The notes: generated by a model from the letters alone, not told the origin. A stretch of 64,000 bases of DNA from Candidatus Latescibacterota bacterium (GCA_965205485.1 OZ242180.1:4832001-4896000); one strand, 5' to 3'; shown: positions 15,967-62,175, counted from the stretch's first letter. A program made the numbers and translations.

Positions 15967-15971
15967 GCGTA

Positions 15972-42502: not shown

Positions 42503-42528
42503 GACACAGCGGAGCCCAACAAGAAACG

Positions 42529-42557: not shown

Positions 42558-42602
42558 CCTGTATACCGTTTTCCGCAGCGACTCGCAAAGCCGATCCGGG
42601 AG

Positions 42603-42794
42603 TCACTCCTCGGCCCGATCGCCGGCCGGGCCGTAAAGCAGGTCGTAGTAACCGTTCTGCTCGAGACGGCGGATCATTTCGCGAATAATGGCGGCGTCCA
42701 CGCGGAACATATCGGCAATCTCAGGCGGCGTCCGGCCTTCTCTGACCAGTTCGATCAGGCGGTCGCGGCTCACAATGAGTTCGGGAACGGCCAT
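42603..42794 (-). CDS. Small hypothetical helix-turn-helix protein (63 aa)
   Basis: LIELVREGRTPPEIADMFRVDAAIIREMIRRL, HTH-like pattern. Confidence 0.6.
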   Translation of the reverse strand: MAVPELIVSRDRLIELVREGRTPPEIADMFRVDAAIIREMIRRLEQNGYYDLLYGPAGDRAEE

Positions 42795-42844
42795 CGACGT
42801 GCTCCGGATCCGTGGAACTATCAGGGTGTTATTGTGGAAACAAA

Positions 42845-42920
<76 letters not shown>

Positions 42921-43144
42921 TCCATTTCTCGGGAAAATGCATTGTTCCCGTTGTACGACAAAGGCGGGAATCTAACAAAACAAGGCACGGATGTCAAGAC
43001 AGTTGCGATTGTTTAAGGCGGTATGGCCGTATGGTCAGGTCTGCGAATACGGACCACGCGCAACCGGTCCGCCCGACAGTTTGACGCGCATATCCGATCA
43101 CGTCATCAGGCCGGAACGAAGCCTGCTCGAGAGAGTGCCGATCG

Positions 43145-45151: not shown

Positions 45152-45238
45152 TCGGCGTCCGCCGGCGTATGTCCGGGATCGGAACCCGGGCACCCGCAAC
45201 GGTAGTGGTACTGCAGAAACCTTGATCAGGATGACTCA

Positions 45239-48200
45239 ATGAAAACCCGTACACGCATCGGTCTTGCACTGGCGCTTCTCTTCGCCGTCGGGGCCTTCGC
45301 CGGCCTTGCGGTGGGACCGGAACGCGTCAACCCCTACCTTGCCGCAATCCTTGGACTCCATGCGCCCGTTGCCCCACCGGCCCCTTCCGTTCCGGAAGCG
45401 AACGCCACTTCGGTTCGCGTACTCGATACCGTATCGGACGCCGGCGTGAGGTCGCACGTTGCCCGCTTTACGGAACACCGGTCGCGAGTTCCCGGATACC
45501 CCGGACACGCCGCTGCCGCGGAATACATCCGGCGCAGTTTCGAGAGCGCCGGTCTCCGGGACGTTCGCACCGAGCCGTTCGACGTCACCTCGCCCGTTGA
45601 CAAGGGCGGCAGCGTGTCGCTGTTGCGGGACAATGTCACGTTTCCCATCCACGCGATCTGGCCGAACCTCGTCAAAACCTCCACACTGCCGCGCGAAGGG
45701 GTCCGCACGCGGTTGATCTACGGCGCGACCGGGGAATTCGCCGACTTCAACGGTCATGCGCTCGAGGGCGCGGCCGTTCTCATGGAATTCAATACGCGGA
45801 ACAACTGGCTGAACGCGGCCACGCTGGGTGCGGGGCAGATCATCTTCATCGAACCGGATTCAACCTTCTATACCGAAGCCGAGCAGAAATTCCTGCAGGT
45901 GCCCAACAGCGTGGAACGATTCTGGATCGATAAAGCGTCGGGACAGGCTCTCAAGTCAATGCTCGAACAACGCGGCGAGATTGAAATCGAACTGCATGCG
46001 AGAATGGAGTGGGAGAAACAAACCGCCCACAATATTATGGGCTTCCTTCCGGGTTCCGATCCGATCCTGAAGGAACAGATCGTCGTGATCAACGCGTACT
46101 ACGACGCCATGTCCGTCGTCCCGGCACTGGCGCCCGGCGCCGAGATGGCCAGCGGCGCCGTCGCCCTGCTGGAGCTGGTCAACTATTTCAAACGATATCC
46201 CCCGAGGCGCACCGTGCTCTTTCTGGCCACTTCGGCCCACCACCTGGGCTTTCGCGGCATCTGCGATTTCCTGGGCCGCCACGCCAGAAAGGAGAGGCAT
46301 TTCGCGGCCCTGATGACCGACCCCATCGACATCCGGCTCTTCATCGGCCTGGACCTGTCGAGCCAGACCGCTCAAATCGGCGTCTGGAACAGTACGCGCA
46401 ACTTCTACTACAACCGGTTCTTCACACCCTTCGGAAAGAAATTCGTCCGCATCTCTCAGGCGATCGCACCCGCCTTCGGCCTCGACCCCGATCAGGCGCT
46501 GCTGGACGGCATCAATCCCACGGGCGGAATGACCTGGGACATGTTCATCCCCGGCGCGAACCTGAAGACCGACGGCGAAGTCGTCCTCGAAGCCGGCACG
46601 CTCGCCCTGTCCCTGGTCACGCTGAACGATGCCCGTTTCCGGGTCGATACGCCCCTGGACCGGCCGGAAGGGGTCAACTTCGGAAATCTCGCAAAACAGG
46701 TCCGCCTGATCACGGGCGTGCTGGATATCGCCCTGAACGACCCGACGCTGATCCCTGATTACCGGCTCAATCCCGACGACCGGATGCGCGGCCTGAAGGG
46801 GTTCGTGCGTACCTTTCCCAGGCGCAGCATCGTACCGGACCGGCCCAAGGCGGGCGCCATTGCCGCGCTCAGGATGGGCATCGACAAATCGGTCAAGGGC
46901 GTCCGGCGCATCTATTACGATCTTGCCGACGAAAACGGTGAATTCTACATGCCGGGAATCGCCGAACGCCGCGTCTCCGTCAGCGCCTACTTTCAGGATC
47001 CGGAGACCGGTGAGATCACGTACGCGCCGAACTACGGGCAGCAGGCGCGGATCTACCGCGGCGACTTCGACATGGACTGGTGGATCTCCAAGAGAAATAT
47101 CATCCTCTTTCCCTGTATCGCCACCGACTTCTACGATACGGTCGATCCGCGTTTCCTCACCAAACTCTCCCAGATCAGCGTCTACGGTAGCGGCAACGTC
47201 ACGCCGCAGGAATACGGGTACGCGATCGGCTTCGGCCCGACGGAACCCGTGGGTACCCTGTTCACGCGTCCGGGAGAGAGAATCAAGGTCGCGATGAGGG
47301 CCGGCGGCGTCGCGGCGGGCTCCGGCGACATCGGCATCCGCTTCCTGCTGCTCAATGCGACGAGCGCCGAGAGTGAAGAAATCGCCAGGGGCACGGGTTA
47401 TCCCACGCTCACCCACGGGTCGTTTGCGCGCACCTCCTTTCTGGCCGCGCGTGACATGTGGACCCTTAACGAAGCCCGGAAGCAGGAGATGCAGAAATAC
47501 GCCATTGAAAACCAGCGTCTGAACATGCTGCACGGCCAGGCCCGCCTCCACCTGGACATGGCCGAAGCCGCGATGTCCCAAAGTCGCTGGGACGTTTTCA
47601 TGAAACATACCCGCGCGGCCCTCGGCATCGAATCGCGCGCCTATCCGGACGTCAAGGACACGCAGAACGACGTGGTGCGCGGCGTCGTCTTTTTCATGGC
47701 CCTGGTCATCCCGTGCGCGTTCTTCGCCGAACGACTCATCTTCACCGCCGTGGACATCCGGCGACAGATCGCGGGATTTATCGGTATTTTCGTTCTCATC
47801 TGGGTCTTTCTTTCAAACGTGCATCCGGCGTTCGAGATCTCCAATCCCCTGGTCGTGCTGCTCGCCTTCGTCATTCTGGCGCTGGCGGTGTTCGTGATTT
47901 CCCTCGTTTTCAATCGTTTCAACGAAACCATGCGCCGGTTACGGGTCCCGGAAGTGCGTTTGCATGAAACCGACGTGGGTCGAATCTCCGCCTCCCTGGC
48001 GGCCTTTCAGCTCGGCATCGCAAACATGAAACGCCGCAAATTGCGCACGGCGCTTACGTTCACCACGCTCCTGCTCCTCACATTTACGGTTCTCTCGTTT
48101 ACGTCCATCACAACGGCTCTCGAATTTCGCCGGATTCCCCTGGGCACCGAGGGTCCGTACCCCGGAATGCTCATCCGCAGCAAGTTCTGGGGCCCGCTGG

Positions 48201-49774
48201 AAGACGTCGTCTACGATTATGCCGTTACCCACTTCCGGGAATCCGCGATAACGGCCCCTCGAAGCTGGTACTATACGCGGGAGAAGAAGATTATCCCGGT
48301 CGAGTCCGAAGACAGCTCAACTCACGTACTCGGCGTTCTGGGAATGACGCCTGAGGAGGCGGACGTGACCGGCATCCACAAGACACTGAAAGTCGGCAGG
48401 TGGTTCCGTCCGGGAGAATCCGCGTGCATACTGCCGGAAAAGATAGCGGATCTACTCGGCGTGGACCCGGGCCGCCTTGAAGCGTCACGCGTCCGGGTGT
48501 TCGGCGAGTCGCTGCCGGTGATCGGCCTGATCGACGCCGGGGCGTTCAGCGAACTCAAGGACCTCGATGAGGAACCCCTCAGTCCCGCCGACTTCAAGCT
48601 TACCGATGAGGAAGCCATCGAACAGATGACCACCCAGGAAACGCGGGAGAAACAGGGCCTGGAACAACCTGAAGTCGAAATCATGCCCTTCGAGCACATC
48701 AACCCCGACGACGTCCTGATCGTCCCGTACGCGTTCCTGCGCCAGGTGGGCAGCCCGCTCCAGTCGGTCGCCCTCCGGTTCGACGCCGGATCAGACGTGG
48801 AGAGCAATGTCAAGGAGCTTCTGTCCAGGCTCTCGGTTGTACTGTTCGCGGGTCTTCCGGACGCGGACGGTCGCGTCAACGTCTCGATTTTCAGTTCGCT
48901 GGGCGACACGTCGAGACGCGGGATGAGCGATCTCTTTATTCCCATCCTCATCGCCTCGCTCATCGTGCTGAATACCATGATGGGTTCCGTGTACGAACGG
49001 TTTCGGGAAATCGGCGTCTATTCCGCGGTGGGCCTGGCGCCGGTCCACGTCGCTTTCCTGTTTATCGCGGAAGCCTGCGTCTACGCCGTCCTCGGCACGG
49101 TGAGCGGCTACATGCTGGGCCAGGCCGCTGCCAAGCTGCTTCTCTGGCAGGGCTGGCTCTCGGGCGTCACGGTCAACTATTCCGCCCAGTCGGCCGTTGT
49201 TTCGTCCGCCCTGGTCATGGCCGTCGTCATCCTGTCAACCCTCTATCCTGCCAGGCAGGCATCCCGGATGGCCGTCCCGGACGTGTCCCGCCGCTGGAAG
49301 ATCCCCGAGCCGGAAGGCGACGACTGGCGTTTCGAATTCCCGTTTACGGTTGGCGGAAACGATGTATTCGGGCTCTGCGTGTTCCTGACGGACTACTTTG
49401 ACTCCCACAGCGGCGAAGCGATGGGGGCGTTCTACACGGACGGCGCCCATCTGTACGCGAAGGGCGGCGCCGGTGAGAGCGGATACGCAATCCGCACGAC
49501 CCTGTGGCTGGCGCCCTTCGATCTGGGCGTAAGCGAGGAGCTTCGCTTCGAGGCGGAACCCACCGGCCAATTCGATATCTATACCCTCACGCTCACCCTC
49601 AGGCGACGCTCGGGCGAAGTCGCGTCATGGCGGCGTGTCAACCAGGGTTTCATGAATACCCTCCGCAAGCAGTTTCTCATCTGGAGAACCGTGGACCCCG
49701 CCGAAAAAGCCGCATACCGGGAAAAAGGCATGCGGATGCTCGTCTCGGACGAACCGGAGGCGAAACCGGCCTGA
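45239..49774 (+). CDS. FtsX/MacB-type ABC permease fused to a degenerate M28-peptidase-like ectodomain (1511 aa)
   Basis: SRVPGYPG, NAYYD...PGAE.ASG..ALLEL M28-like region; LGIANMKRRKLRTALT and SVYERFREIGVYSAVG MacB/FtsX motifs. Confidence 0.8.
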   Translation: MKTRTRIGLALALLFAVGAFAGLAVGPERVNPYLAAILGLHAPVAPPAPSVPEANATSVRVLDTVSDAGVRSHVARFTEHRSRVPGYPGHAAAAEYIRRSFESAGLRDVRTEPFDVTSPVDKGGSVSLLRDNVTFPIHAIWPNLVKTSTLPREGVRTRLIYGATGEFADFNGHALEGAAVLMEFNTRNNWLNAATLGAGQIIFIEPDSTFYTEAEQKFLQVPNSVERFWIDKASGQALKSMLEQRGEIEIELHARMEWEKQTAHNIMGFLPGSDPILKEQIVVINAYYDAMSVVPALAPGAEMASGAVALLELVNYFKRYPPRRTVLFLATSAHHLGFRGICDFLGRHARKERHFAALMTDPIDIRLFIGLDLSSQTAQIGVWNSTRNFYYNRFFTPFGKKFVRISQAIAPAFGLDPDQALLDGINPTGGMTWDMFIPGANLKTDGEVVLEAGTLALSLVTLNDARFRVDTPLDRPEGVNFGNLAKQVRLITGVLDIALNDPTLIPDYRLNPDDRMRGLKGFVRTFPRRSIVPDRPKAGAIAALRMGIDKSVKGVRRIYYDLADENGEFYMPGIAERRVSVSAYFQDPETGEITYAPNYGQQARIYRGDFDMDWWISKRNIILFPCIATDFYDTVDPRFLTKLSQISVYGSGNVTPQEYGYAIGFGPTEPVGTLFTRPGERIKVAMRAGGVAAGSGDIGIRFLLLNATSAESEEIARGTGYPTLTHGSFARTSFLAARDMWTLNEARKQEMQKYAIENQRLNMLHGQARLHLDMAEAAMSQSRWDVFMKHTRAALGIESRAYPDVKDTQNDVVRGVVFFMALVIPCAFFAERLIFTAVDIRRQIAGFIGIFVLIWVFLSNVHPAFEISNPLVVLLAFVILALAVFVISLVFNRFNETMRRLRVPEVRLHETDVGRISASLAAFQLGIANMKRRKLRTALTFTTLLLLTFTVLSFTSITTALEFRRIPLGTEGPYPGMLIRSKFWGPLEDVVYDYAVTHFRESAITAPRSWYYTREKKIIPVESEDSSTHVLGVLGMTPEEADVTGIHKTLKVGRWFRPGESACILPEKIADLLGVDPGRLEASRVRVFGESLPVIGLIDAGAFSELKDLDEEPLSPADFKLTDEEAIEQMTTQETREKQGLEQPEVEIMPFEHINPDDVLIVPYAFLRQVGSPLQSVALRFDAGSDVESNVKELLSRLSVVLFAGLPDADGRVNVSIFSSLGDTSRRGMSDLFIPILIASLIVLNTMMGSVYERFREIGVYSAVGLAPVHVAFLFIAEACVYAVLGTVSGYMLGQAAAKLLLWQGWLSGVTVNYSAQSAVVSSALVMAVVILSTLYPARQASRMAVPDVSRRWKIPEPEGDDWRFEFPFTVGGNDVFGLCVFLTDYFDSHSGEAMGAFYTDGAHLYAKGGAGESGYAIRTTLWLAPFDLGVSEELRFEAEPTGQFDIYTLTLTLRRRSGEVASWRRVNQGFMNTLRKQFLIWRTVDPAEKAAYREKGMRMLVSDEPEAKPA

Positions 49775-49898
49775 GAAACGTCGCGATGCCGATGAACAGT
49801 CACGTTCTCCCGTTATTGCAGTCCGGAAATAGGCTTTGCAAAACGCTGCTTTGTTTGTATTTTTCAGGCCCTTAACCCCTACCACGCGTTGACGCTCT

Positions 49899-52319
49899 AT
49901 GGCCTTTCTCGATCGCATTCGCAGGCGGAAATCCAATCCGTACCAGGAAATCGAAGAGTACCGGGATCTGCTTGATGTCCCCAAGGAGTTCGAAGAGGGC
50001 TTCAACTCCAAGACGATCCTCGGCGCACTCTTCGTTTCCGTCATCATGGTTCCGGGCAACATCTACCTGGAACTCATGGTGGGACATTCCGTCGGCGCCG
50101 CCGCCCAGTGGGTGACCATCATCCTGTTTCTGGAACTGGCCAAGCGCTCGTTCACCGTGTTGAAGAAGCAGGAACTCTACCTGCTCTACTATGTCACCAG
50201 CGCCCTGGTCGCCCGCGAAACCGGAATGTTCGAAGGCCTGCTCTGGCAGCAATACTACGTTCAGTCTCCCGCAGCAAAGCAGTTCGGCATCTCCCACCTC
50301 ATCCCCCGATGGTGGGCGCCCCCGCCCGATTCTCCCGCGCTGATCGACCGGACTTTTCTGCATCAGGACTGGCTTCTGCCCATCTCCCTGCTTGTCCTTG
50401 GGATGATCATGGGGCGCATCCAGTGGTTTACCGCGAGCTACGTGCTCTTCCGGATCACCTCCGACTACGAGCGCCTGCCGTTTCCGTTCGCGCCGATCAA
50501 CGCCCAGGGCGCCATGGCGCTCGCGGAAGAAAGCAGCGGCCAGTACAGCTGGCGATGGCGGGTCTTCAGCATCGGCGCCGTGATCGGCGTGGTATTCGGC
50601 TCCGTCTACGTGGCGGTGCCCGCCATTACCGGCGCGTTTATGGAGAGCCCGCTTCAGCTCATCCCCATCCCATGGGTGGATTTCACCCAATACACGGGAT
50701 ATTTCCTGCCGGCCACGCCGCTGGGTTTCACGCTGCACCTGGCCCCCATCTTTGCCGGGCTGCTGGCGCCCTTCTGGGCCGTCATGGGCGCATTCATCGG
50801 CGTCGCCATCCACACCGCGGCGGGCCCCATCCTGTATTCCTACGGGTACATGCCCAACTGGTATATGGGCATGGATACGATCATGACCCACTTCGTCACG
50901 GGCATCGATTTCTGGATGAGCTTCGGGATCGGCATCACCTTCGCCATCGCGATTATTGGATTCTACCAGGTCTGGACCGGCGTCCGAACCGCGCGTGTCG
51001 AGAAAAAGGAAAAGGGCAGCTGGACGCCGCCGCCCGGCCGGGGAGACTTCCGGATCTGGATCTGCATCGTGCTCTTCTGTCTTGCGAGCCTCTATACCAT
51101 AATCCTCGCCAAGGTCCTCTTCCCTGACCTCGTGAGCACCGTGCTGCTCATGTTCTTCTTCGTCTTCGCGTTCGTCTATACGCCGCTGATCTCCTTCGTC
51201 AACGCCCGGCTGGACGGGCTGGTCGGACAGAACGTCAATATCCCCTATATCAGGGAAGCCACGATCTTTCTGAGCGGGTTCAGGGGTATCGAAATCTGGT
51301 TTGTGCCCTTCCCCCTGGCCAACTGGGGCGCACAGGCCGAAACGTTCCGTCAGATCGAACTCACGGGCTCGAAATTCACCGGTATCCTGAAGGCTGAGGT
51401 CTTCATGATCCCGCTGATCCTTCTGACCAGTTTCATGTACTGGTCCTATATCTGGAAGCTGGCGCCCATTCCCTCGTCCTCCTACCCCTACGTCCAGATG
51501 ATGTGGCCGCTGCGGGCGCTCCAGAGCAGCGTCTGGTACACCGGCACCATGCAGGGCGAGGTGGAGCACGACCCGTCCTCCGGAGCGGTATCCTTCCAGC
51601 CGAGCAATCTGCCCGACGGCAACTGGTGGTACTGGCGTGCCCGCGCCTCGGCCGACGCGCACATCGATGACCACGAACAACGCACTTACGGACCGTGGTC
51701 CCGCGTTGGGTATTTCTATACGAACTTCAAGAGTACCGAAAAGCCGCTCGTACCGTCGCTTCCGGTGGACCGGTCGGCGCCGGACATTTCCGAAGCGTTG
51801 CGGCTGGGCCTGCCTTCGGCGCCGGCGTTGCGGAGTCCCGATGACGGAAGCCACGCGGACAACCCAAACCCCAACCTGGTCGTGCTCGCCGCGCGGGACC
51901 CGGAAGGCCGGGAGCTCGTGTATCAGTTCGAAGTGGACCAGGTGCCCTCCTTCGACGGTTCCTTTCTGCAGAGTTCGGACGACGAGCCGATCCTGTTCGA
52001 AGCCATCAAGCCGGTTGTGATCGCCATCGGACTCGCCGTCGGCCTGGTCTCGTTCGTGGTTCTGTCCGTCCTGGGCCTGCCGGTCCTGCTCATCTTCGGA
52101 TACATACGGAGTCTGACGAGCATTCCCCACGTGATGATCACCGAGATCATCGGTGCGCTCCTCGCGCGGTACTATTTCTGGAAGCGCTTCGGCAGACAGC
52201 AATGGCGCCTCTACGCGGCGGTGTTGTACGTCGGATTCTCGGTGGGCATGTCCCTGGTGGGCATGGCCTCCGTCTCCATTGCAATGATACAAAAGGCCGT
52301 CTCGGTACTGTTGTTCTGA
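49899..52319 (+). CDS. OPT-like peptide transporter with inserted soluble beta-domain
   Basis: Many TM segments; FEEGF, SDYERLPFPFAP, PIPS..YPY; about 140-aa polar insert near the C-terminus. Confidence 0.7.
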   Translation: MAFLDRIRRRKSNPYQEIEEYRDLLDVPKEFEEGFNSKTILGALFVSVIMVPGNIYLELMVGHSVGAAAQWVTIILFLELAKRSFTVLKKQELYLLYYVTSALVARETGMFEGLLWQQYYVQSPAAKQFGISHLIPRWWAPPPDSPALIDRTFLHQDWLLPISLLVLGMIMGRIQWFTASYVLFRITSDYERLPFPFAPINAQGAMALAEESSGQYSWRWRVFSIGAVIGVVFGSVYVAVPAITGAFMESPLQLIPIPWVDFTQYTGYFLPATPLGFTLHLAPIFAGLLAPFWAVMGAFIGVAIHTAAGPILYSYGYMPNWYMGMDTIMTHFVTGIDFWMSFGIGITFAIAIIGFYQVWTGVRTARVEKKEKGSWTPPPGRGDFRIWICIVLFCLASLYTIILAKVLFPDLVSTVLLMFFFVFAFVYTPLISFVNARLDGLVGQNVNIPYIREATIFLSGFRGIEIWFVPFPLANWGAQAETFRQIELTGSKFTGILKAEVFMIPLILLTSFMYWSYIWKLAPIPSSSYPYVQMMWPLRALQSSVWYTGTMQGEVEHDPSSGAVSFQPSNLPDGNWWYWRARASADAHIDDHEQRTYGPWSRVGYFYTNFKSTEKPLVPSLPVDRSAPDISEALRLGLPSAPALRSPDDGSHADNPNPNLVVLAARDPEGRELVYQFEVDQVPSFDGSFLQSSDDEPILFEAIKPVVIAIGLAVGLVSFVVLSVLGLPVLLIFGYIRSLTSIPHVMITEIIGALLARYYFWKRFGRQQWRLYAAVLYVGFSVGMSLVGMASVSIAMIQKAVSVLLF

Positions 52320-52406: not shown

Positions 52407-52964
52407 ATGTCAGGCGCGATCGGCATGATCGAAGTCGAAGGCGTTGCCGGGATTATTCTCGCGTCGGACGCTGCTTGCAAGGCCGCCGGAGTGGACCTCC
52501 TGGGCTGGGAGTCCATCGGCGGATTCACCACAGTCTTTCTCGGCGGATCCATCAGCAGGGTGGCAACCGCGCTCAAGAGCGGCGAACAAGCAGCCAGAGA
52601 GGTGGCGGGGCACGTGGTGGCGGCGCCGATGACACACCCGGAACCCGCCTGCCGGGATTACGTTTCGAATGAAATCGCCACGGAGCGGCGCACGCCGACC
52701 GGCGCGCTGGGTCTGATCGAGACGAGAGGATACGGCGCGCACGTCACCGCCAACGACAATATGGTGAAGGCGGCCGACGTCCGGGTCTTCAACGTGCTCA
52801 CCGTACACAACCGGGTGGTCTGCTCCCTTATACTTGGGGACGTGGCTTCCTTGACCGAGGCCCTGCCCGCGGGTCGCGCGAGCGTCGAGACAGGAGAGAA
52901 TTTCCTCGGCGCCGCCCTCATCCCCAAGCCCCTGCCCGACGTCCTGCGGGCATTCGGCCCCTGA
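52407..52964 (+). CDS. Bacterial microcompartment shell protein, two tandem BMC domains
   Basis: AIGMIE...DAACKAAGV and ALGLIETRG...DNMVKAADV, GDVAS, IPKP. Confidence 0.9.
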   Translation: MSGAIGMIEVEGVAGIILASDAACKAAGVDLLGWESIGGFTTVFLGGSISRVATALKSGEQAAREVAGHVVAAPMTHPEPACRDYVSNEIATERRTPTGALGLIETRGYGAHVTANDNMVKAADVRVFNVLTVHNRVVCSLILGDVASLTEALPAGRASVETGENFLGAALIPKPLPDVLRAFGP

Positions 52965-52972
52965 GCGCCGTC

Positions 52973-54133
52973 GTGTCCGCACGAAATCATGCCCTGGGGA
53001 TTCTGGAGACCCGCGGCATGACCGCGCTTGTCGCGGCCCTGGACGCCATGCTGAAAACCGTGGACGTCAGGGTCCTGGGGCGTCACGGCGTTGGATCCGG
53101 CTGGCTGACCGTCGTGATCGAAGGCGTCGTTTCGGACGTGGAGGCCGCCATTCGGATCGGGCGATCCGAGGCCGAGAACCACGGCGAGTTGATCAGCGCC
53201 GACGTGATCGCCGGCCCGGCCCCGGGCGCCCTCGCGTCGATGCCGCACATGGCGGGCGCGGGCACGTCGAAACCGGTCGGCTCGCAGGCGATGGGCATCC
53301 TCGAAACACGCGGAATGGTACCCCTCATCCGCGGCGCCGACGCCATGATCAAGAGCGCGCCCGTCCACGTCGCCGGCTGGACTTCCATTGGCGGCGCGCT
53401 GGTTCATCTCGTGGTCCGGGGCGATATATCCTCGGTCCAGACTGCCCTTCAGACCGGTAAAGCGTGTGCGGATGAAGTCGGGGAAGTCTACGCGACCCTG
53501 GCGATTCCCAGCCCTGAAGCGGGTATCGCCCCATTGCTTCCGGATCCGCCGATTTCAAACGGGCGCAAGGAAGACGCCGGGGCGCTCGGTATTCTTGAAA
53601 CAACGGGTTACGTGTCCGCGGTCGGCGGATCGGACGCGATGGTCAAAGCGGCCGACGTCGACCTTGTGCGCCTCGTCATCGCCAGCGGAGGCCGGGTGGA
53701 CGCGCTGGTGAAAGGCGAACTCGACGCGGTCCAGGCGGCCGTGGAAGCCGGTATCGATGGCGCGCGGGAGGCCGGGGAACTGAATGCCTCCTGTGTCGTT
53801 TCCCGCCCGTCTTCCGACATCATGGCCTGCTTCGGCGGGAACACCGTCAGGAATACGTCAGGCTTGCATCAGGCGATGGGACTGATCGAAACGCGCAGCA
53901 CCGTGGCCCTGGTCAAAGCCGTGGATCAGATGTTGAAGTCCGCGGACGTGGAATACGAGGGCCGGTACAAAGTGGGGTACTTTCTCACGGCAAGCGTCGT
54001 CCGGGGAGACGTCGGCGCGGTACGTGCCGCCCTGAATGTCGGCGCCGGGGAAGCGGAGAGGTACGGCGAACTGGTGTCTGCACACCTTATACCCCATCCC
54101 TATCCGGCGCTGGAAGAACGGCTGATCCACTGA
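52973..54133 (+). CDS. Bacterial microcompartment shell protein with four tandem BMC domains
   Basis: Four A(L/M)G(I/L)(L/I)ET...D.M.K repeats starting at aa 7, 106, 204 and 301. Confidence 0.93.
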   Translation: MSARNHALGILETRGMTALVAALDAMLKTVDVRVLGRHGVGSGWLTVVIEGVVSDVEAAIRIGRSEAENHGELISADVIAGPAPGALASMPHMAGAGTSKPVGSQAMGILETRGMVPLIRGADAMIKSAPVHVAGWTSIGGALVHLVVRGDISSVQTALQTGKACADEVGEVYATLAIPSPEAGIAPLLPDPPISNGRKEDAGALGILETTGYVSAVGGSDAMVKAADVDLVRLVIASGGRVDALVKGELDAVQAAVEAGIDGAREAGELNASCVVSRPSSDIMACFGGNTVRNTSGLHQAMGLIETRSTVALVKAVDQMLKSADVEYEGRYKVGYFLTASVVRGDVGAVRAALNVGAGEAERYGELVSAHLIPHPYPALEERLIH

Positions 54134-54161: not shown

Positions 54162-55331
54162 ATGATCCGTATTGACGATGCGGTTGTTACCGAACAATTG
54201 CTCAAGGACAGACTGGGCGCTGAGCGGGAAGTCGAAATCTGCCCGCGGGCGAAGCTGACGCCGCTGGCGCTGGACTATCTGGCGGCCAACCGGGTCCAGG
54301 TATCCAGAAGAGAGGCGGCGGCCGCCGGTCCGCGGACTTCAGCGCCGGCCGCCCGTCGGAAATCCGGCGAACGGAAAGAATTCAAGGGCATCTTCTGCCC
54401 CAATATCGTCATTTTCGACAGCAATGACCGGATCAACTACGCGGAAATGGAGCGATATGTCAACTGGCTCATCGAAGCCGGCATCCACGGGTTGTATCCC
54501 AATGGCAGCACGGGCGAATTCGTGCGTCTTTCCAGCGACGAGCGCAAGGAGGTCGTGCGCCTGGTCACGAACGTCAACCGTGGGCGCGTGCCCGTTCTGG
54601 CCGGCGCGAGCGAAGCCAACCTCCGCGACGTGCTCAGAATGAGCGAATACTACGCCGGCATCGACGTCGACGCCATTTCTCTCGTACCCCCGTACTATTA
54701 CGAGATCTCGGACACCAGCCTCTTCGAGTACTTCGCTGAGATCGCGAGACAGACGCCTCTCGACGTCCTGTTATACAATATCCCCCAGTTCACGCAGGAA
54801 CTCACGCTGGACATCATGGAACAGTTGCTTCCCTTCGAGCGAATCATGGGTACCAAAGATTCCAGCCGGGATATGCCGCGGCTGATCAACACCATGCATC
54901 GGCTGCGGGCGCAGCGCCCAGACTACGTGGTCCTGGTCGGCTGCGAGGAAATCCTGTGTCCATCCATTATGATGGGCGCCAGCGGGGGCACGATCGCGAC
55001 CTCCGGCATCATTCCCGAGGTCATTGTGGATATCTATGAAAAGACGCTTGCCGGCGACCTCGAGCGTGCACGCGGCATGCAATGCCGCATCCTGGACCTC
55101 ATCAACCTGATGCTGCTGGGTGTGAACTTTCCGGAGGGATTCAAAACCGGTGTGGCCGTGCGCGGATTCGACGTCGGACCTCCGCGGCAGGCCATGAGCG
55201 ACGAGGAAAAGGAATATCTCCTCAAGCTTGAGTCCCAGATCAGCTGCATCCTCAAGGATATGGGTTACGACGTGAATGGTGCGCGGGCGTGTCCCGTAAC
55301 CGACCTGCCGCCAATTGTCGACCGTACCTGA
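54162..55331 (+). CDS. DapA/NanA-family class I aldolase with N-terminal extension
   Basis: NGSTGEF, LYNIP, GTKDSS; about 70-aa extra N-terminus containing LTPLALDYL. Confidence 0.88.
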   Translation: MIRIDDAVVTEQLLKDRLGAEREVEICPRAKLTPLALDYLAANRVQVSRREAAAAGPRTSAPAARRKSGERKEFKGIFCPNIVIFDSNDRINYAEMERYVNWLIEAGIHGLYPNGSTGEFVRLSSDERKEVVRLVTNVNRGRVPVLAGASEANLRDVLRMSEYYAGIDVDAISLVPPYYYEISDTSLFEYFAEIARQTPLDVLLYNIPQFTQELTLDIMEQLLPFERIMGTKDSSRDMPRLINTMHRLRAQRPDYVVLVGCEEILCPSIMMGASGGTIATSGIIPEVIVDIYEKTLAGDLERARGMQCRILDLINLMLLGVNFPEGFKTGVAVRGFDVGPPRQAMSDEEKEYLLKLESQISCILKDMGYDVNGARACPVTDLPPIVDRT

Positions 55332-55410: not shown

Positions 55411-56355
55411 ATGGCTGAAAACGCGCAGCGGCACAACCTCGTGGACCCGTTCAACCTGGATGCCGGCGACGGCTACGTCTGGCTGAAAGGCAACCTCCAC
55501 TCCCACACGACGAACTCCGACGGCAAGGCGTCGCCCCAGGAACGTCTGGACGGCTACGTGAGCCAGGGGTACGACTTCCTTTGTCTCTCGGACCACTACC
55601 GGATCACCCGGATCGATTCCGTGGATTGTCCGGACGACTTCGTGCTCATTCAGGGCGCCGAACTGCATCCGGACAATCCGTTCGGCGGACAGAAACACCA
55701 TTTTCTCTGCCTGAACATCCACGAGGACCTGGACTCGGAGAACATGCCGCCCCAGCACGTGATCGACGCGGTTCAGGAACAGGGGGGCAGCACGTGGCTT
55801 GCCCACCCGTACTGGAGTTCGGTCAACATCCTGAGGGACACCGTTCCGCTCACGGGATTTGCCGGCGTGGAGGTATTCAACACAACGTGCCGACGCGCGG
55901 GCAGAGGGGAATCCGGCGTTCATTGGGACGACTGGATGGACGTGGAGAACAGGCTGTATCCCGCCCTGGCCAACGACGACTCCCACGCCCTCGAATCGGA
56001 TCATCACGATACCTATGGGGGCTGGACGATGGTACGCGTGAAGGACCGGTCTCCAGGGGCCATTCTCGACGCGCTCGAACGGGGCGCGAGCTATTCGAGC
56101 ACCGGCGCCCAGATTCGGAACATCACCCTGCGAAGAAGCGACGAGGAGAAACGGCCGGTCGAGGCCGCCGTCGAATGCTCCGAGGCCAGGTGTATCCTGG
56201 CCGTTTGCGATACGTTCGGAACCGAATACAGGAATTCCGGCAAATCCTTTACGAGCGCCACGTTCAACCTGCGGCCGGGCGCACGCTGGGTACGTTTCGA
56301 AGTGATCGGAACGGACGGCTCGAAAGCCTGGTCCAACCCGTTCGACCTCACCTGA
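55411..56355 (+). CDS. PHP-domain (CehA/McbA-like) metallohydrolase
   Basis: KGNLHSHT..SDG, SDH, AHPYW, EVFN, NDDSH, AWSNP. Confidence 0.85.
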   Translation: MAENAQRHNLVDPFNLDAGDGYVWLKGNLHSHTTNSDGKASPQERLDGYVSQGYDFLCLSDHYRITRIDSVDCPDDFVLIQGAELHPDNPFGGQKHHFLCLNIHEDLDSENMPPQHVIDAVQEQGGSTWLAHPYWSSVNILRDTVPLTGFAGVEVFNTTCRRAGRGESGVHWDDWMDVENRLYPALANDDSHALESDHHDTYGGWTMVRVKDRSPGAILDALERGASYSSTGAQIRNITLRRSDEEKRPVEAAVECSEARCILAVCDTFGTEYRNSGKSFTSATFNLRPGARWVRFEVIGTDGSKAWSNPFDLT

Positions 56356-56368
56356 GGCTGGCGTCGCG

Positions 56369-57106
56369 ATGGGACTCATCCTGACACCCGAACAGGTGGC
56401 AGCGTACCGCAAGGACGGTTACTTACTGGTACCGGATCTGCTGACGCCGCCTGAAATCGACGCCTTCCTGGAAGCGCAGGCGGAAACGGTGGCGCCGGAA
56501 ATCCTGGAACTCGGCCTGCGCAGGCACACCGCGGATCCGCAATGGCGTTACCTGGCGTCGCATCCCCGTGTCTCCGGAATCGCGTCTCTGCTGCTGCAGG
56601 GTCCGGCGATGATCGTCCAGACCATGTACATGGAAAAGGCGCCGCGCGGGGGCACGGGTATCGCGCTCCATCAGGACGCACACTATATCAGGAACGAACC
56701 CGGCACGCTCATGGCGTGCTGGCTTGCGTTGAGCGATACCGACAGCAGCAACGGCGGGCTCTGCGTCGCCGCCGGCAGCCACCTGGCCCCCCTCCGGAAT
56801 ACCCGTCCCCCTCGAGACAGCAGCGAACACGCCTCCTGGGTGAAAGATTACGCCATGCGAGGACCCGACGGCACGGAGTGGGCCGAAACCATGCACTCGC
56901 ACGAGGTCGCCGGCGTAAGCCGCGATGAACTCACCTTCCTTACGGTTCCGCGAGGATCGGGCGTCTTCTTTACCGGCAGAACCATCCACGGCTCTTTCGC
57001 GAACCGGTCCATGGGCAGGCCCCGGCTTGCATTCGCCATCCACTATGTGAGAGAGGGTACGTGGGTGTTTCGCCGGGACATCCAGGACCTCGCGCCGGCA
57101 AACTGA
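56369..57106 (+). CDS. PhyH-family dioxygenase
   Basis: YRKDGYL, LHQD, NGGL...GSH, IHGS..N. Confidence 0.88.
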   Translation: MGLILTPEQVAAYRKDGYLLVPDLLTPPEIDAFLEAQAETVAPEILELGLRRHTADPQWRYLASHPRVSGIASLLLQGPAMIVQTMYMEKAPRGGTGIALHQDAHYIRNEPGTLMACWLALSDTDSSNGGLCVAAGSHLAPLRNTRPPRDSSEHASWVKDYAMRGPDGTEWAETMHSHEVAGVSRDELTFLTVPRGSGVFFTGRTIHGSFANRSMGRPRLAFAIHYVREGTWVFRRDIQDLAPAN

Positions 57107-57119
57107 AGGGACCTCCACC

Positions 57120-58088
57120 ATGAAACGCGTTGCAAAGCCGGAAGGCGAGTACAATATCGTCATCGAAGACGTCCCCGTACCTGAAGTCTCGCCCACGGAA
57201 GTGCTCATCCGGGCGGAGTGCAGTCTGATCAGCCGCGGTTCCGAGATCTGGCGGCGTTATATCCGTCCCGAAGCCATCGACCATCAAGCCATGGGCTACT
57301 CGTTCGTGGGAGACGTTGTCGAGGTCGGCGCCCGCGTGGACGGCTTCTCCATCGGCGACCGTGTGGCGGCTCTTGCGCCGCACGCGGAGTACGTGGCCGT
57401 CGAAGTCGTGGACTCACCCCACCGGGCCCCGGTTGTGCATCTTCCGGACGCGGTCTCCTCGGAAGCCGCGACGTTCTGGCCGCTGAGCACCAGTTCCGTT
57501 CTCTGGATGCGCGAAATCGAGGCCCGCAAGGAAGACACGGTGGCTATACTGGGTCAGGGTCTCGTCGGCTCGATCTGCATGCAGGCGCTGAACGCGGAAG
57601 TGAACCCCCGGGTGATCGCTGTCGACGCGCTTCCCCTCCGGTGCGAACTGGCCGCAAGCCTGGGGGCGGACCACGTGGTGGACGCATCGCGCGAGGATCC
57701 CGTAAGGGCCGTCAAAGATCTGACGGGCGGCGCAGGCGTGGAGATCGCGGTGGAGGCGGTGGGCGGCCGCGCCGGGGCGGCCGCGTTCGCGCAGGCGCAG
57801 GATATGGTGAAACGAAAAGGCCTGATCCAGGTGATCGGCCTGTATGAGGACGAGCCACTACCGCTCGACTCCGGAAAGATCCAGGGCCGGCGGATTGTCG
57901 GCGGGTACTCGGACGGCGGCAGACGTCCTTCGGGCTCCGACCGCGCCCTGCAGCTTCTCGCCCAGAATAAGATCCGCGCCGAAGCAATGATTTCCCACCG
58001 ATTCCCCTACCAGGAAGCGGCAGAGGCCTTCGACCTGCTGTATACGCGCCTGGGCGAAACGATGGGCGTCGTACTTGTATGGAAGTGA
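57120..58088 (+). CDS. MDR-family (zinc-binding type) dehydrogenase
   Basis: SLISRGSE, MGYS.VG, GDRV, GQGLVG. Confidence 0.85.
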   Translation: MKRVAKPEGEYNIVIEDVPVPEVSPTEVLIRAECSLISRGSEIWRRYIRPEAIDHQAMGYSFVGDVVEVGARVDGFSIGDRVAALAPHAEYVAVEVVDSPHRAPVVHLPDAVSSEAATFWPLSTSSVLWMREIEARKEDTVAILGQGLVGSICMQALNAEVNPRVIAVDALPLRCELAASLGADHVVDASREDPVRAVKDLTGGAGVEIAVEAVGGRAGAAAFAQAQDMVKRKGLIQVIGLYEDEPLPLDSGKIQGRRIVGGYSDGGRRPSGSDRALQLLAQNKIRAEAMISHRFPYQEAAEAFDLLYTRLGETMGVVLVWK

Positions 58089-58169
58089 CTGCAGGTGACG
58101 CTGGGCCGGGAAAATGCCGGCTTCCGACCCCGATCGGCCAGCCCATGCATGTCGTAATCCGGAGGTTTT

Positions 58170-59066
58170 GTGAAAAACGGCTTCTATAAGGGCCACGGTC
58201 TGGGCAACGACTACATCGTCATGGACCCGGCGGAACTGGAATTTGAACTCACGCCCGGCAATATCCGCAACATCTGCGATCGCAACCGCGGTATCGGCGG
58301 CGATGGCATCCTCACCCTGGAACCCGGGAATGGCGCCGACTTCGGCCTGCGCATCCTGAATCCCGACGGCAGCGAGGCCGAAAAGTCGGGCAACGGCCTG
58401 CGCATCTTCGCCAGGTTCCTCCACGCCACCGGTCGGACGCGAAAACGCGACTTCACGGTGGACACGATCGGCGGCCGCGTGGAGATCCGGGTGCACCTGG
58501 ACCATCACGGCGATGCCAGCCTCGCGACCGTCGAGATGGGACAGGCCGACTTCGATCCCGTCGCGCTGCCGTGTACGTTGACGGGGGGCGAGCTCATCGA
58601 ACGGCCGATCACCGCCGCCGGCCGCGAACTGAGATTCACGGGCGTCAGCGTGGGGAATCCCCACTGCGTTATCTTCAAAGCCGCGCACGAGTCCTGGACC
58701 CGCGACGACCTGCTCGAACTCGGCCCCGCCCTGGAGAATCACGAACTCTTTCCCAATCGCATCAACGTGCAACTGGCCGTACCCACGGGTCCGAAGGAAA
58801 TCTTCATCCTCATCTGGGAACGCGGCGCCGGCGAGACGCAGGCATCCGGTTCCTCGTCCTGCGCGGCGGCGAGCGCGGCTGTCCGGCTGGGTCTGGCGGC
58901 ATCTCCTGTAACCGTAAACGCGCCGGGCGGCGCCCTCCACGTCGCCGTCGACCCCCGGTTCCACCTGACCATGAAGGGGCCGGTCGCGGAGGTCGCCCTG
59001 GGGGCCCTGAGTCCGGCGTTCGTCAGGGAACTTCAGGACGACAACCGGGTTGACGCCTCCGGGTAA
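58170..59066 (+). CDS. dapF: Diaminopimelate epimerase
   Basis: KGHGLGNDY, GIGGDG, NPDGSEAEKSGNG, GNPH, WERGAGETQASGSS; Ser in place of both usual catalytic Cys. Confidence 0.85.
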   Translation: MKNGFYKGHGLGNDYIVMDPAELEFELTPGNIRNICDRNRGIGGDGILTLEPGNGADFGLRILNPDGSEAEKSGNGLRIFARFLHATGRTRKRDFTVDTIGGRVEIRVHLDHHGDASLATVEMGQADFDPVALPCTLTGGELIERPITAAGRELRFTGVSVGNPHCVIFKAAHESWTRDDLLELGPALENHELFPNRINVQLAVPTGPKEIFILIWERGAGETQASGSSSCAAASAAVRLGLAASPVTVNAPGGALHVAVDPRFHLTMKGPVAEVALGALSPAFVRELQDDNRVDASG

Positions 59067-59077
59067 GGCGAAATTTC

Positions 59078-60190
59078 CTATGCCACCCGGTATTTCTCCA
59101 GGGTCTTCTCGTTGATGGTCACACCAAGACCGGGGCCCTCCGGCACAGCCACGTGTCCGTCGACGACTTCGAAGCGTTCGCGCGTCAGTTCGTGGCGCAG
59201 CGGCGATTCCGACATGCAATACTCGAACATCTCCCCGCCGGGCGCCGCGGCGAGCGCGTGAAGCGACGCGGCGATCGTAATCCCGCTCTTGAAACTGTGG
59301 TTCACGACCCTTGCATGGCAGCGGTGCGCCATCCTTCCCACCTCCACCATGGTCGAAATCCCGCACCGCCCAGGGTCGGGCTGTACCCAGTCCAGTCCGC
59401 CTTCCGCCACTAGACGCTCGAATGCGTCGAGCCGCGCTTCCGCTTCACCCGCCGCGATGGGAACGGGACTTTCCTCAGACAACCTCGCGTATCCGCGCAG
59501 GTCGGACGGGTGCAGCGGCTCTTCGAGCCAGAACGGACGGAACTCCGCGAACCGGCGCGCCCGCTTCAGGCCCGTCTTCCAGTCCCATACCTGCCCCGCG
59601 TCGATCAGCACGTCCACCCCGTCTCCGACGCCCCGGCGGGCCTCCCTGACCAGGGCGATATCGGTCTCCTCGTCCTCCCCCATCGGCCCCCAGCCGAACT
59701 TGACCGCGGTAAAGCCCTCCCCCGCAAACCTCCGACCGAGTTCTGCAGTCTGCGCGGGCGAATCGCCGAACAGAATCGAACAATACGCCCGGAAGCGCTT
59801 TTTGTAGGGCCCGCCCAGAAGCCGGTAGACCGGCACATCGCATGCCTTGCCTGCAATATCCCAGAGCGCCTGATTGACACCCGCCATGGCGTGCCGCCCC
59901 ACGCCATCGCCGCCGTAGTAGTTCGTCGCGTCCGTCATTCGTTGCATACACGCTTCCACCGCCAGCGGGTCCTCAAGGTAAAGCGCATTTGCCAGGCCGT
60001 TGCAGATCTGGTGCGACAGGGGCGCATCCACGACGGCCTTGACCGCGGTCGGACAGGAATCCACCTCTCCCCAGCCCGTGAGTCCGGCGTCTGTTTCGAC
60101 CTTGATCAAACAGGTATCCTGCGTACCGTCGCAGGTTTCCGTGACGTGAGGGAGCCGCAACACCATCGCGGTAACGCGAGTGATCTTCAT
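59078..60190 (-). CDS. Mandelate racemase / muconate lactonizing enzyme family (enolase superfamily)
   Basis: GWGE, ALWDIAGK, AVKFG, IDAG, WLEEP, AAGE, PGLGV. Confidence 0.9.
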   Translation of the reverse strand: MKITRVTAMVLRLPHVTETCDGTQDTCLIKVETDAGLTGWGEVDSCPTAVKAVVDAPLSHQICNGLANALYLEDPLAVEACMQRMTDATNYYGGDGVGRHAMAGVNQALWDIAGKACDVPVYRLLGGPYKKRFRAYCSILFGDSPAQTAELGRRFAGEGFTAVKFGWGPMGEDEETDIALVREARRGVGDGVDVLIDAGQVWDWKTGLKRARRFAEFRPFWLEEPLHPSDLRGYARLSEESPVPIAAGEAEARLDAFERLVAEGGLDWVQPDPGRCGISTMVEVGRMAHRCHARVVNHSFKSGITIAASLHALAAAPGGEMFEYCMSESPLRHELTRERFEVVDGHVAVPEGPGLGVTINEKTLEKYRVA

Positions 60191-60276
60191 TTCAAGCCTC
60201 CGGATTTCGAAATCGGTCCGCGCCACGGCGCCAATGCCGAGCGCAATCCCGGGTGTACAGCAGGTTCCGACTGCGC

Positions 60277-60305
60277 ATGATACCCACCCCGCTTCGGCCT
60301 GTCAA
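60277..60305 (-). promoter_or_regulatory. Sigma-70 promoter for MR/MLE gene
   Basis: TTGACA-N17-TATCAT on minus strand. Confidence 0.6.
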
Positions 60306-60408
60306 TCCCCATGCCGGGATTGTGCGCGGGCACCAGAAACGGGTTGCACGGGCGCGCCGTTCACCGTAGATTATCCGCGTCCTGCACTGCACCCTAGGGG
60401 ATGCCGCT

Positions 60409-61170
60409 ATGCCAGCCGTCCAGAACCTGAGCGAAACCTACGAAGCCAATGGCGTGCTGCCTCGAATCGACGTCTTCTCCGAATCCGAGATCGGCGCATT
60501 CAGGGCGCAGTTCGACGAACTCGAAGCCAGAGAAGGCAGAGACGTCTGCCAGGTGGGCCTGCAGTCCCGGCACTTCGACGAGGAATTCATCTGGCGACTG
60601 GCCGCGGACGCGCGCATTCTGGACGTCATGGAACAGGCCATGGGTGAAGACATCCTGCTGCTGGCCACGCACTTTTTCTGCAAGTACCCCGCCCGGGCCG
60701 AAAAGCACTTTGTCGCGTGGCACCAGGACGTCACGTACTGGGGCCTGAAGCCGCCGCTGGCGCATACGGCCTGGATCGCCATCGACGACAGCGACGCGGA
60801 AAACGGGTGCATGCGCGTCATCCCCGGGTCCCACAAGAGCGGGATCGTCACCCACGGCACATCGGAACGCGCGGGAAACCTGCTGAGCATCAACCAGGAA
60901 ATCCCGGACGAACTCGTCGACACCAGCCGCGCGATCGACCTGGAACTCAGCGCCGGCCAGATGTCGGTCCACAGCGGCCAGCTCTTCCACGCGAGCATGC
61001 CCAATACCTCGAACCGGCGGCGTTGCGGCCTTACCGTCCGCTTTATCCCGCCCGAAGCCAGGCAGGTCGAATCCAACTCGATCGGCCAGGACTGGCGGCC
61101 CATCCTGCTGCGCGGCGTGAACCGATACACGCACCATCCCCTCTTTCCCGTGCCGTTTCCAGTACCATAG
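60409..61170 (+). CDS. PhyH-family dioxygenase
   Basis: VAWHQD, ENGCM.VIPGSH, FHAS.PN...RR. Confidence 0.9.
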   Translation: MPAVQNLSETYEANGVLPRIDVFSESEIGAFRAQFDELEAREGRDVCQVGLQSRHFDEEFIWRLAADARILDVMEQAMGEDILLLATHFFCKYPARAEKHFVAWHQDVTYWGLKPPLAHTAWIAIDDSDAENGCMRVIPGSHKSGIVTHGTSERAGNLLSINQEIPDELVDTSRAIDLELSAGQMSVHSGQLFHASMPNTSNRRRCGLTVRFIPPEARQVESNSIGQDWRPILLRGVNRYTHHPLFPVPFPVP

Positions 61171-61181
61171 AGAGAATCACG

Positions 61182-62051
61182 ATGGCGAAACGCAGGGTTG
61201 TCGTCACCGGCGCGGCCGGGTATATCGCCGGACGGAGTCTGCCGGTCCTCAGAGAGCGCTATGATCTCTGCCTGCTGGACGTGCGAGAGACGGACAGAAA
61301 CGGCAATGAGGTGGAGGACATCGTCCGGACCGACCTTCTCGACCGGGACCGGAATGCGTATCGGGAGCATTTTTCGGACACGGACGCGGTGATACACTGC
61401 GGTTTCACCCGTGCCAACGCGCCCGAGGACCAGTTCCGGGCGGAATCCGACAACATCGCCATGGCCTATAACGTCTACCAGACCTGTCTGGAAGCAAACG
61501 TCCGCAGGGTGGTCGTCATCAGCTCCAATCACGCCACCGACTTCTACGAGACGCTCATCTGGTCCGGCCGCATGGAATTCGTGACACCGGACATGCGCCC
61601 GCTTTCCGACAACTTCTACGGCTGGGCGAAGGCCTCGTACGAACTGCTGGGGTTCGCGTTTGCGGCGGGCAAGGTCGGAAACGGCAGGAAGCTTCAGAAC
61701 ATCCAGCTGCGGATCGGCGGTCCCCGAGACACCGTGGCCGATAATCTCAGGACGGACAACCTGAAAGGCATGCACCGCAGCCTCGGGGCGTATCTGAGCG
61801 CACGCGACCAGACCCAGCTTCTCATCAAGAGCATCGAGACCGAAAACATCGAAGACGAGAACGGCATCCCCTTTCAGATCTTCTACGGCATCAGCGGAAA
61901 CAGCCACAATTTCTGGAGTATCGCCAACGCCCGCAAGCTCATCGGCTACGAACCGGAAGACAACAGCCTGATCCGGTTTGCCGACAGGATCGCACCCGTT
62001 CTTGCTGCCGCGAAGCGGGACAAGGAAAGGGGCGTAAACGCCGACCAGTAA
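61182..62051 (+). CDS. NAD-dependent epimerase/dehydratase family, uronate dehydrogenase-like
   Basis: VTGAAGYIA, SSNHA, YGWAK, LRIG, LS.RD, GYEPED; start trimmed to ATG 61182. Confidence 0.82.
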   Translation: MAKRRVVVTGAAGYIAGRSLPVLRERYDLCLLDVRETDRNGNEVEDIVRTDLLDRDRNAYREHFSDTDAVIHCGFTRANAPEDQFRAESDNIAMAYNVYQTCLEANVRRVVVISSNHATDFYETLIWSGRMEFVTPDMRPLSDNFYGWAKASYELLGFAFAAGKVGNGRKLQNIQLRIGGPRDTVADNLRTDNLKGMHRSLGAYLSARDQTQLLIKSIETENIEDENGIPFQIFYGISGNSHNFWSIANARKLIGYEPEDNSLIRFADRIAPVLAAAKRDKERGVNADQ

Positions 62052-62175
62052 GCCGCTCGGGTCTCCGTGTCGATCCGCGTGACAGGGAAGACCCCCGCGC
62101 ATGGCCCGGAAACCGATCCGGACATCCGGAAACCCGGATACGCGGGGTCGACGGGTTCCTTGAAAGGTCAATCGC

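Follow-up and report, generated by a model that had tools for sequence, protein, structure and literature searches.

Shell tiles of microcompartments (BMC) are hexamers of one-domain BMC-H or trimers of two-domain BMC-T proteins, each tile holding six domains, and shell permeability is usually argued from symmetric pores in which one residue is repeated six or three times. In a 64,000-nt stretch of DNA from Candidatus Latescibacterota bacterium (GCA_965205485.1, OZ242180.1:4832001-4896000; hereafter the window), two adjacent genes encode two and four BMC domains, respectively, which raises the question of what kind of tile such chains build. The original prediction, made from the sequence alone, was that they close one ring together as a heterodimeric 4+2 tile. 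We consider it probable that proteins A and B form a 1:1 asymmetric pseudo-hexamer and that in this genome the pair represents a satellite cassette, serving a distant core metabolosome together with an aldolase of 2-keto-3-deoxy-sugar-acid type. The features of the locus, in window coordinates, are as follows:

52407..52964, + strand: gene A, encoding protein A (185 aa, ATG start) with BMC domains A1 and A2
52416..52622, + strand: domain A1, pore loop W-E/D-S-I-G-G, shorter by one residue than the other five
52704..52931, + strand: domain A2, pore loop V-H-N-R, G108-Y109 invariant, predicted contact with B1
52965..52972, + strand: spacer of 8 nt between the stop of A and the start of B
52973..54133, + strand: gene B, encoding protein B (386 aa, GTG start) with BMC domains B1-B4
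52991..53218, + strand: domain B1, G-R-H-G-I/V-G-S-G-W, predicted contact with A2
53288..53515, + strand: domain B2, G-W-x-x-I-G-G-A-L-x-H
53582..53809, + strand: domain B3, S-G-G-R, R241 invariant, edge arginine R278 in 83%
53873..54100, + strand: domain B4, Y-K-V-G-Y, predicted contact with A1
54162..55331, + strand: DHDPS-family class I aldolase directly after B, 389 aa, with an extra N-terminal domain of about 50 aa

The Pfam PF00936 profile finds two stretches in A (E 6.8e-32) and four in B (E 4.7e-77), all six matches of the genome search scoring 55.7-73.2 bits against a cut-off of 24.5, and bears out what had been proposed, namely two- and four-domain genes 8 nt apart with non-permuted domains at about 96-99 aa spacing (domain starts within A and B are 96, 99, 98, and 97 aa apart). 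All six domains align from profile position 1 in canonical order and are thus non-permuted; the circular permutation by which BMC-Tsp, BMC-Tdp, and BMC-Hp are recognized is found in none of them. The chains carry two and four domains and not the single one of the hexamer-forming BMC-H, protein A has the two non-permuted PF00936 domains per chain of BMC-Ts, and both A and B qualify as PF00936 hexagonal shell proteins by domain score and predicted canonical fold. Pairwise identity among the six domains of this genome is only 24-47%, indicating no recent repeat expansion. The edge motifs (DAACK, DNMVK, DAMLK, DAMIK, DAMVK, and DQMLK) and the pore loops (SIGG, VHNR, VGSG, SIGG, ASGG, and VGYF) are all present as originally read, and the heterodimer mass, expected at about 58 kDa, is calculated as 58.4 kDa (18.96 kDa for A plus 39.45 kDa for B). 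The homotrimer of A would have 56.9 kDa, a value so close to that of A+B that SEC-MALS alone cannot tell them apart. No further BMC or vertex gene was found in the window, in line with the absence of pentamer and single-domain BMC-H genes noticed there before; a promoter scan gave 2 sites versus 0.8 expected and was given no weight.

Pairing of A and B and conservation of their six positions

Among 168 genomes of the phylum, searched with thresholds of E <= 1e-60 for B and E <= 1e-28 for A, B was found in 83 and A in 84, A being present in 83 of 83 genomes with B. In 80 of these 83 A lies directly upstream of B on the same contig, and in the remaining three (G044, G123, and G160) the contig ends within B, its start still being located behind A; the sole genome with A only (G095) has a contig end cutting inside A, and G096 harbors a second A copy followed by the start of a B. 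Metagenome loci chosen by B have A upstream in 44 cases out of 55, the other 11 starting inside B; 68 further loci having only ordinary one- and two-domain genes according to our own profile were left out of the counts. Contig ends aside, four-domain homologs devoid of the two-domain partner, which would speak against the 4+2 proposal, occur neither in the 168 genomes nor in the 55 metagenome loci, and the pair is adjacent wherever the contig is intact, a point that had been put up for checking in related genomes. The intergenic gap varies from -13 to +17 nt in all 63 non-redundant loci, which as a sequence feature is compatible with translational coupling. The flanks are less uniform: upstream of A, the 48 wide loci have a gene for a Cys-rich protein (36), a membrane protein (7), or another product (5), and downstream of B one for the aldolase (42), FAD oxidoreductase (4), or something else (2), so that the change of flanking genes around a constant A-B serves as an internal control on the linkage of the pair. 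In the bacterium’s own family, 21 other genomes have PF00936 counts of either 8 (15 genomes) or 2 (6 genomes) with no intermediate, one of the latter six (G049) having a contig break at the A-B locus. The A-B pair is real and widespread within one bacterial class. The genomes bearing it come from three families of that class and so are not independent samples, and operon linkage alone also keeps genes together, which limits co-occurrence as evidence.

Conservation was analyzed in 91 loci with both genes whole, reduced to 63 by a filter below 95% identity. Across these 63 A-B pairs, identity is 57-70% within one position versus 32-39% between positions of one locus. In the domain tree (98 domain rows comprising 8 sampled per class, the domains of this genome, and six three-domain proteins; 76 columns, many forks open), A1, A2, B1, B2, B3, and B4 each make up one side of a starred branch, and the longest stems belong to A1 and A2. 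The D-x-x-x-K motif and the PRPH arginine are known from the PduA literature as edge residues for tile-to-tile contact. The Asp and Lys of the former are 98-100% conserved at each of the six positions in 63 loci. The arginine, stated originally to be replaced in five domains out of six, is indeed kept by B3 alone in the given copy, while the family consensus (63 loci) lacks it at four positions only, PRPH-type arginine being retained at B3 (83%) and B1 (68%); its loss at these four consensus positions may limit shell insertion. The pore loops differ by position and yet are conserved, reading W-E/D-S-I-G-G in A1, V-H-N-R in A2, R-H-G-I/V-G-S-G-W in B1, I-G-G-A in B2, S-G-G-R in B3, and Y-K-V-G-Y in B4, with no cysteine in the pore loops of A. 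Conservation of R136, R241, and K333 at 97-100% suggests that the ligand of the putative pore is anionic. Conservation extends to residues located directly after the domains (P91/H92, P190, and F287), a pattern suited to within-ring packing, and the inter-domain linkers in B are about 20-25 residues long and variable in sequence. APC-corrected mutual information, calculated over 63 paired rows (38 effective) to trace covariation of A with B, gave no signal, even within-chain interfaces being missed, and the A-B distance correlation of r = 0.92 is expected from shared ancestry and hence was given no weight.

A fused six-domain protein gave only 3 matches among 4200 longer candidates with none accepted as genuine, which is weak evidence of absence, and more than four BMC domains in one protein were not encountered among the best 150 of 8026 representative matches. 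P0121 was rejected as a six-domain fusion: it reads A1-A2-B1, whereupon the frame drifts, apparently through faulty assembly. A 3+1 split of B is seen in one assembly met three times (L030, L196, and L208, the same 13,769-nt contig), and a 2+2 split, due to a single stop, in one 2-kb contig (L158); both splits are probably errors, or else rare re-splits still totalling six.

Other multi-domain forms came to light as well. Three canonical BMC domains within about 283-330 aa are carried by P0129, P0130, P0134-P0136, P0138-P0140, P0141, P0147, P0167, P0169, P0171, and P0175. P0129 and P0130 may be an adjacent 3+3 pair, as hinted by their identity of 39% and equal contig statistics (5 contigs, the longest 520,993; a 5,151-nt contig is represented in each cluster). 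One query, run without positive control, found no three-domain BMC protein in 168 genomes of the phylum, and a literature search for “Three BMC domains” found no paper. In the loci of family f4, a two-domain gene (about 186 aa) nearly always stands directly before a one-domain gene (about 87 aa), as exemplified by L149:4615-5450, L135:11342-12210 and 14676-15536, and many other f4 loci. This 2+1 unit, absent from the genome studied here, is sometimes duplicated or moved as a block and could be a (2+1)x2 tile.

Core metabolosome and aldolase

The genome is a single contig of 5.1 Mb with 8 BMC domains in total. Only two of them are located outside A-B, and these, as well as three PF03319 genes, all lie near C1:2.64 Mb, so that the search for PF03319 and for a core BMC locus, suggested along with the original prediction, found both in one place:

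G000:C1:2628000-2647999, positions 9649-19974: core metabolosome locus L012

The locus contains a phosphotransacylase-like gene, BMC-H, three BMC-P, acylating aldehyde dehydrogenase, class II aldolase, and acetate kinase, with a BMC-H bearing a C-terminal extension about 2 kb past the latter. Besides, a gene for a 470-aa membrane protein sits between the transacylase and BMC-H, a 556-aa gene and a short gap lie between the kinase and the extended BMC-H, and a near-identical stretch of about 100 nt precedes both inserts (overlapping ORF translations). The core dehydrogenase is 55-63% identical to those of pair-containing operons, and the transacylase 38-59%. With a complete core metabolosome elsewhere, at a distance of 2.2 Mb, the pair in the window is a satellite, and since two relatives lacking it (G040 and G071) keep the same core locus, it is an add-on. 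Thus, of the two possibilities considered initially—a satellite locus or non-shell use of the fold—the first one gains support both from the core locus and from the position of the pair within the main shell operon in relatives.

The aldolase encoded after B has E. coli YagE, a probable 2-keto-3-deoxy-galactonate aldolase, as its closest solved protein (E 2.4e-37), and stays below every cut-off of NCBIfam. Its Y205 and K232 are invariant in 44 of 44 homologs and belong to motifs that we take to be catalytic in the DHDPS family. Matches to the aldolase occur in 84 of 168 genomes, six of them being distant forms without the N-terminal match; among the 83 B genomes it is present at threshold in 76, cut by contig ends in two, and missing from the locus in five (G096, G099, G101, G106, and G107), where FAD oxidoreductase follows B directly. 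Occurrence of the pair without aldolase in these five genomes means that the tile is not bound to that single enzyme. The N-terminal domain of about 50 residues is found also in the Cys-rich protein of larger operons, presumably resembles the EutQ N-terminus, and is a candidate for shell targeting; as a separate observation, the atlas neighbors of this domain (54162-54310), none of which reaches 0.9, include a “putative ethanolamine utilization protein” and, at 12%, PF15953 PDU_like. The aldolase is likely the cargo enzyme of the cassette, and its substrate may be assigned, quite tentatively, to the class of 2-keto-3-deoxy sugar acids. Acylating aldehyde dehydrogenase, transacylase, and kinase constitute established metabolosome chemistry, and an aldolase giving pyruvate and a small aldehyde fits the core equipped with these three enzymes.

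Several neighboring genes deserve mention in their own right. The Cys-rich protein of 150-175 aa encoded upstream of A in the main operons (L022:5502-5987 and its homologs) has no Pfam or NCBIfam match and is described as uncharacterised in the accessible part of the text on MUF2 (PMC8217296). Positions 41714-52319 of the window encode an ABC ATPase, a DUF6785/DUF6784 membrane protein, a 1511-aa peptidase M28/FtsX fusion, and an 806-aa membrane protein without Pfam or NCBIfam match. These genes show synteny with the pair in close relatives only and were rejected as members of the system, the 806-aa gene being located directly before A in just 7 of 48 wide loci. Downstream, at 55411-63300, there are catabolic genes for a CehA/McbA-family metallohydrolase, two PhyH dioxygenases, and a zinc dehydrogenase, as well as DapF and two mandelate racemase-family enzymes; the metallohydrolase and PhyH follow the aldolase also in G061 from another family.

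Ring closure and competing arrangements

AlphaFold2 models were obtained for A (pLDDT 93.9, pTM 0.91) and B (pLDDT 91.2, pTM 0.89), the lowest confidence in the latter falling on the linkers (pLDDT 63-70 in those blocks). According to Foldseek, both models superpose on the synthetic head-to-tail BMC-H fusion 6NER with rmsd of 2.0-5.1 Å and do not match PduT or HO BMC-T1 (rmsd 14-17 Å); for A the TM values are 0.83-0.87 to 6NER versus about 0.42-0.45 to PduT/HO-5812 (rmsd 15-17 Å), the predicted model thus lacking the domain arrangement of these BMC-Ts proteins. Matching 6NER rather than PduT/BMC-T1 implies, as a prediction, one and the same direction round the ring for the chains of A and B, unlike in solved natural tandem proteins. 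PDB sequences with more than two matched stretches were absent among the 60 listed of 63 matches. The complex model of A+B has a score of 0.82 versus 0.00 for the best of 3 controls, which were unrelated, non-BMC proteins; the mark for this score was reached by 116 of 157 solved complexes versus 2 of 215 mismatched pairs, counts that are rough here, our own alignments being used. Contacts are reproduced between runs to at least 98%, with partner pLDDT of at least 89 and 135-139 confident contacts, in which B1 meets A2 and B4 meets A1, so that the ring would be closed in gene order. A is further contacted by G140 from the pore loop of B2, which would agree with loops converging on a narrow center. 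The six-domain ring foreseen for the 1:1 heterodimer does therefore close in the prediction, with a score that is non-specific. Given that BMC rings have been solved, the controls were non-BMC, and paralogs mix widely, the pass is weak on specificity and may reflect memory of solved BMC hexamers and 6NER. Wide cross-compatibility of BMC-H paralogs is reported from experiments and from AlphaFold/ESMFold predictions in the accessible part of PMC12058022.

The main support for the 4+2 tile, which is also the best explanation of these findings, comes from the strict pairing, the separate conservation of all six positions, and a complex model that is consistent though non-specific; the tile as originally proposed is thus favored by pairing and the predicted ring, the heterodimer itself still being a prediction. 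It is rather improbable that A is an ordinary homotrimeric BMC-T, the ring of B being completed by two free BMC-H or by the other two-domain protein of MUF2 and the linkage meaning an operon only. Such an arrangement would agree with the BMC-Ts domain content of A, classed so under the name Ts_hazel in the accessible part of PMC8217296, with the canonical BMC-H available in the genome, with the ready mixing of BMC-H paralogs (PMC12058022, as far as its text is accessible), and with the fairly canonical sheet face of B1, but neither A without B nor B without A is found in 168 genomes, contig ends aside, while other neighbors vary; the other two-domain protein is missing from this genome, which has no BMC domains beyond the 8 mentioned; A1 and A2 carry the longest stems in the tree; and the A-B model closes with its 135-139 confident contacts.

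The linkers of B, with their length of about 20-25 residues, variable sequence, and lowest model confidence (pLDDT 63-70), leave some room for cooperation without a closed 1:1 ring, in which they would allow the domains of B to span neighboring tiles or stacked rings (for example, as A3B3 or in strand-like polymers), so that the shell would be stapled or curved. Strict A-B linkage suits any obligate complex, this one included, yet the single-chain model of B fixes its four domains mutually (pTM 0.89), the 1:1 model closes without extra chains, and P91/H92, P190, and F287 are conserved as for within-ring packing, which makes such stapling even less probable than a homotrimer of A. The lowest credence is given to non-shell use of the fold, with the A-B ring acting as a soluble partner of the aldolase, either ligand-binding or scaffolding: we regard it as very improbable, since against the distance of 2.2 Mb to the core locus and the loss of edge arginine at most positions stand the 98-100% conservation of the edge Asp/Lys at all six positions, the 36 wide loci, out of 48, where the pair comes after the Cys-rich gene belonging to the main shell operon, and the five genomes holding the pair without aldolase at the locus.

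In the preferred arrangement, a single 4+2 tile, coupled genes would yield equal amounts of A and B, which would combine 1:1 in the cell to give a single hexagonal shell tile; its ring would follow the order A1-A2-B1-B2-B3-B4, where B4 would close on A1. Such a tile would be devoid of rotational symmetry, its six differing pore loops forming one fixed lopsided pore, while all six edges would keep the Asp/Lys pair for tile-to-tile contact. A-B would then be a minor, specialized tile inserted in the metabolosome encoded at C1:2.64 Mb, the core locus supplying bulk shell, vertices, acylating aldehyde dehydrogenase, phosphotransacylase, and acetate kinase. In this genome, the class I aldolase would accompany it in an accessory cassette and provide the core enzymes with a small aldehyde, released along with pyruvate on cleavage of a 2-keto-3-deoxy sugar acid.

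With slightly more confidence than doubt, this may be generalized to the statement that any split of six fused domains can build a tile. A-B would then be the first natural tile without symmetry, a fixed 4+2 heterodimer whose six loops, selected separately, make a channel that is shaped to its substrate, an anionic sugar acid, and possibly directional, and the three-domain proteins (possibly 3+3) and the 2+1 pair would belong to the same unrecognized class of hetero-tiles with fixed composition. Known mixed hexamers vary in composition and are hard to study for this reason, while the 4+2 tile, if real, would be a natural homogeneous asymmetric pore, purifiable as one species and mutable position by position, so that experiments could address directly how broken pore symmetry affects selectivity. 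The standard catalog with its five hexagonal types would gain a further tile class, and a protein called very unusual would be explained. The tile would also hint at the missing signature chemistry of MUF2-type organelles (class I aldolase feeding aldehyde dehydrogenase) and be of use to engineers, its six edges and pore positions each being addressable separately.

Relation to known systems

The closest known match to the A-B pair is Ts_hazel with “large H_blurple” of MUF2 (PMC8217296, supplementary file 4, p. 13, within the accessible part). The accessible supplement of Sutter 2021 mentions “double (Ts_hazel)” and “very unusual quadruple linear fusions” in MUF2 loci, MUF2 comprising 13 loci (PMC8217296). 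The B homolog P0099 (56% identical) is CME28_01110, and Ts_hazel CME28_01115 (193 aa) has the next locus tag, these adjacent tags tying the A and B families to those of Sutter 2021; the A family matches Ts_hazel by length and gene position. A and B are thus already catalogued, yet unexplained, and the original impression of an undescribed shell class does not hold for the four-domain protein, while the idea of a 4+2 tile is absent from the portion of PMC8217296 available, where the two proteins are treated separately, without such a tile, co-occurrence test, or structure; here, the pair is followed in 83 genomes. The main operon of family f4, composed of BMC-P genes, aldehyde dehydrogenase, transacylase, two-domain and one-domain BMC, Cys-rich protein, A, B, aldolase, and oxidoreductase, is of the MUF2 type. 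The genome studied here shares with MUF2 the aldehyde dehydrogenase with phosphotransacylase, class II aldolase, and three BMC-P of its core locus, as well as double and quadruple BMC-H fusions and the pfam00701 aldolase with an extra N-terminal domain. It departs from MUF2 in having one normal and one C-terminally extended BMC-H, with the shared N-terminal domain present once, on the aldolase, and its core locus contains acetate kinase, which is not in the MUF2 description; the core may be of a MUF2-like or PVM-like type, and the pair, unlike that of MUF2 operons, is a satellite without the Cys-rich gene. A literature search for a 4+2 or asymmetric fused tile, with most subscription papers and preprint supplements outside reach, found no paper, the accessible part of PMC11585597 has nothing on the A-B pair, and the term “MUF2” led only to the 2021 catalog and its preprint.

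Regarding tile architecture, B fits none of the five hexagonal classes in the catalog, and A is BMC-Ts by its domains, not by its predicted geometry. With BMC-Ts proteins (PduT and Haliangium BMC-T1/HO-5812) A has in common two non-permuted PF00936 domains per chain and six domains per tile, but those are threefold-symmetric homotrimers, whereas the predicted arrangement of A is off by rmsd of 15-17 Å and tied to a four-domain partner. The fusion 6NER, with its head-to-tail domain order, is the best structural and sequence match of both chains; it is an engineered two-domain fusion, while the natural pair distributes six domains, all different, over two chains as 2+4. Sixfold pore symmetry is broken also in the hetero-hexamers CcmK3/CcmK4, which are satellite-encoded, and PduA/PduJ (PMC8217296 and PMC12058022, accessible parts), which are mixed from single-domain chains of two kinds, whereas composition and order in A-B would be fixed by fusion. 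Finally, satellite loci of the “EUT module”, as described in the accessible part of PMC8217296, likewise combine a portable upstream enzyme with a dedicated tile extending the core metabolosome, the difference being a symmetric EutL-type trimer with ethanolamine ammonia-lyase there and the 2+4 pair with a DHDPS-family aldolase here.
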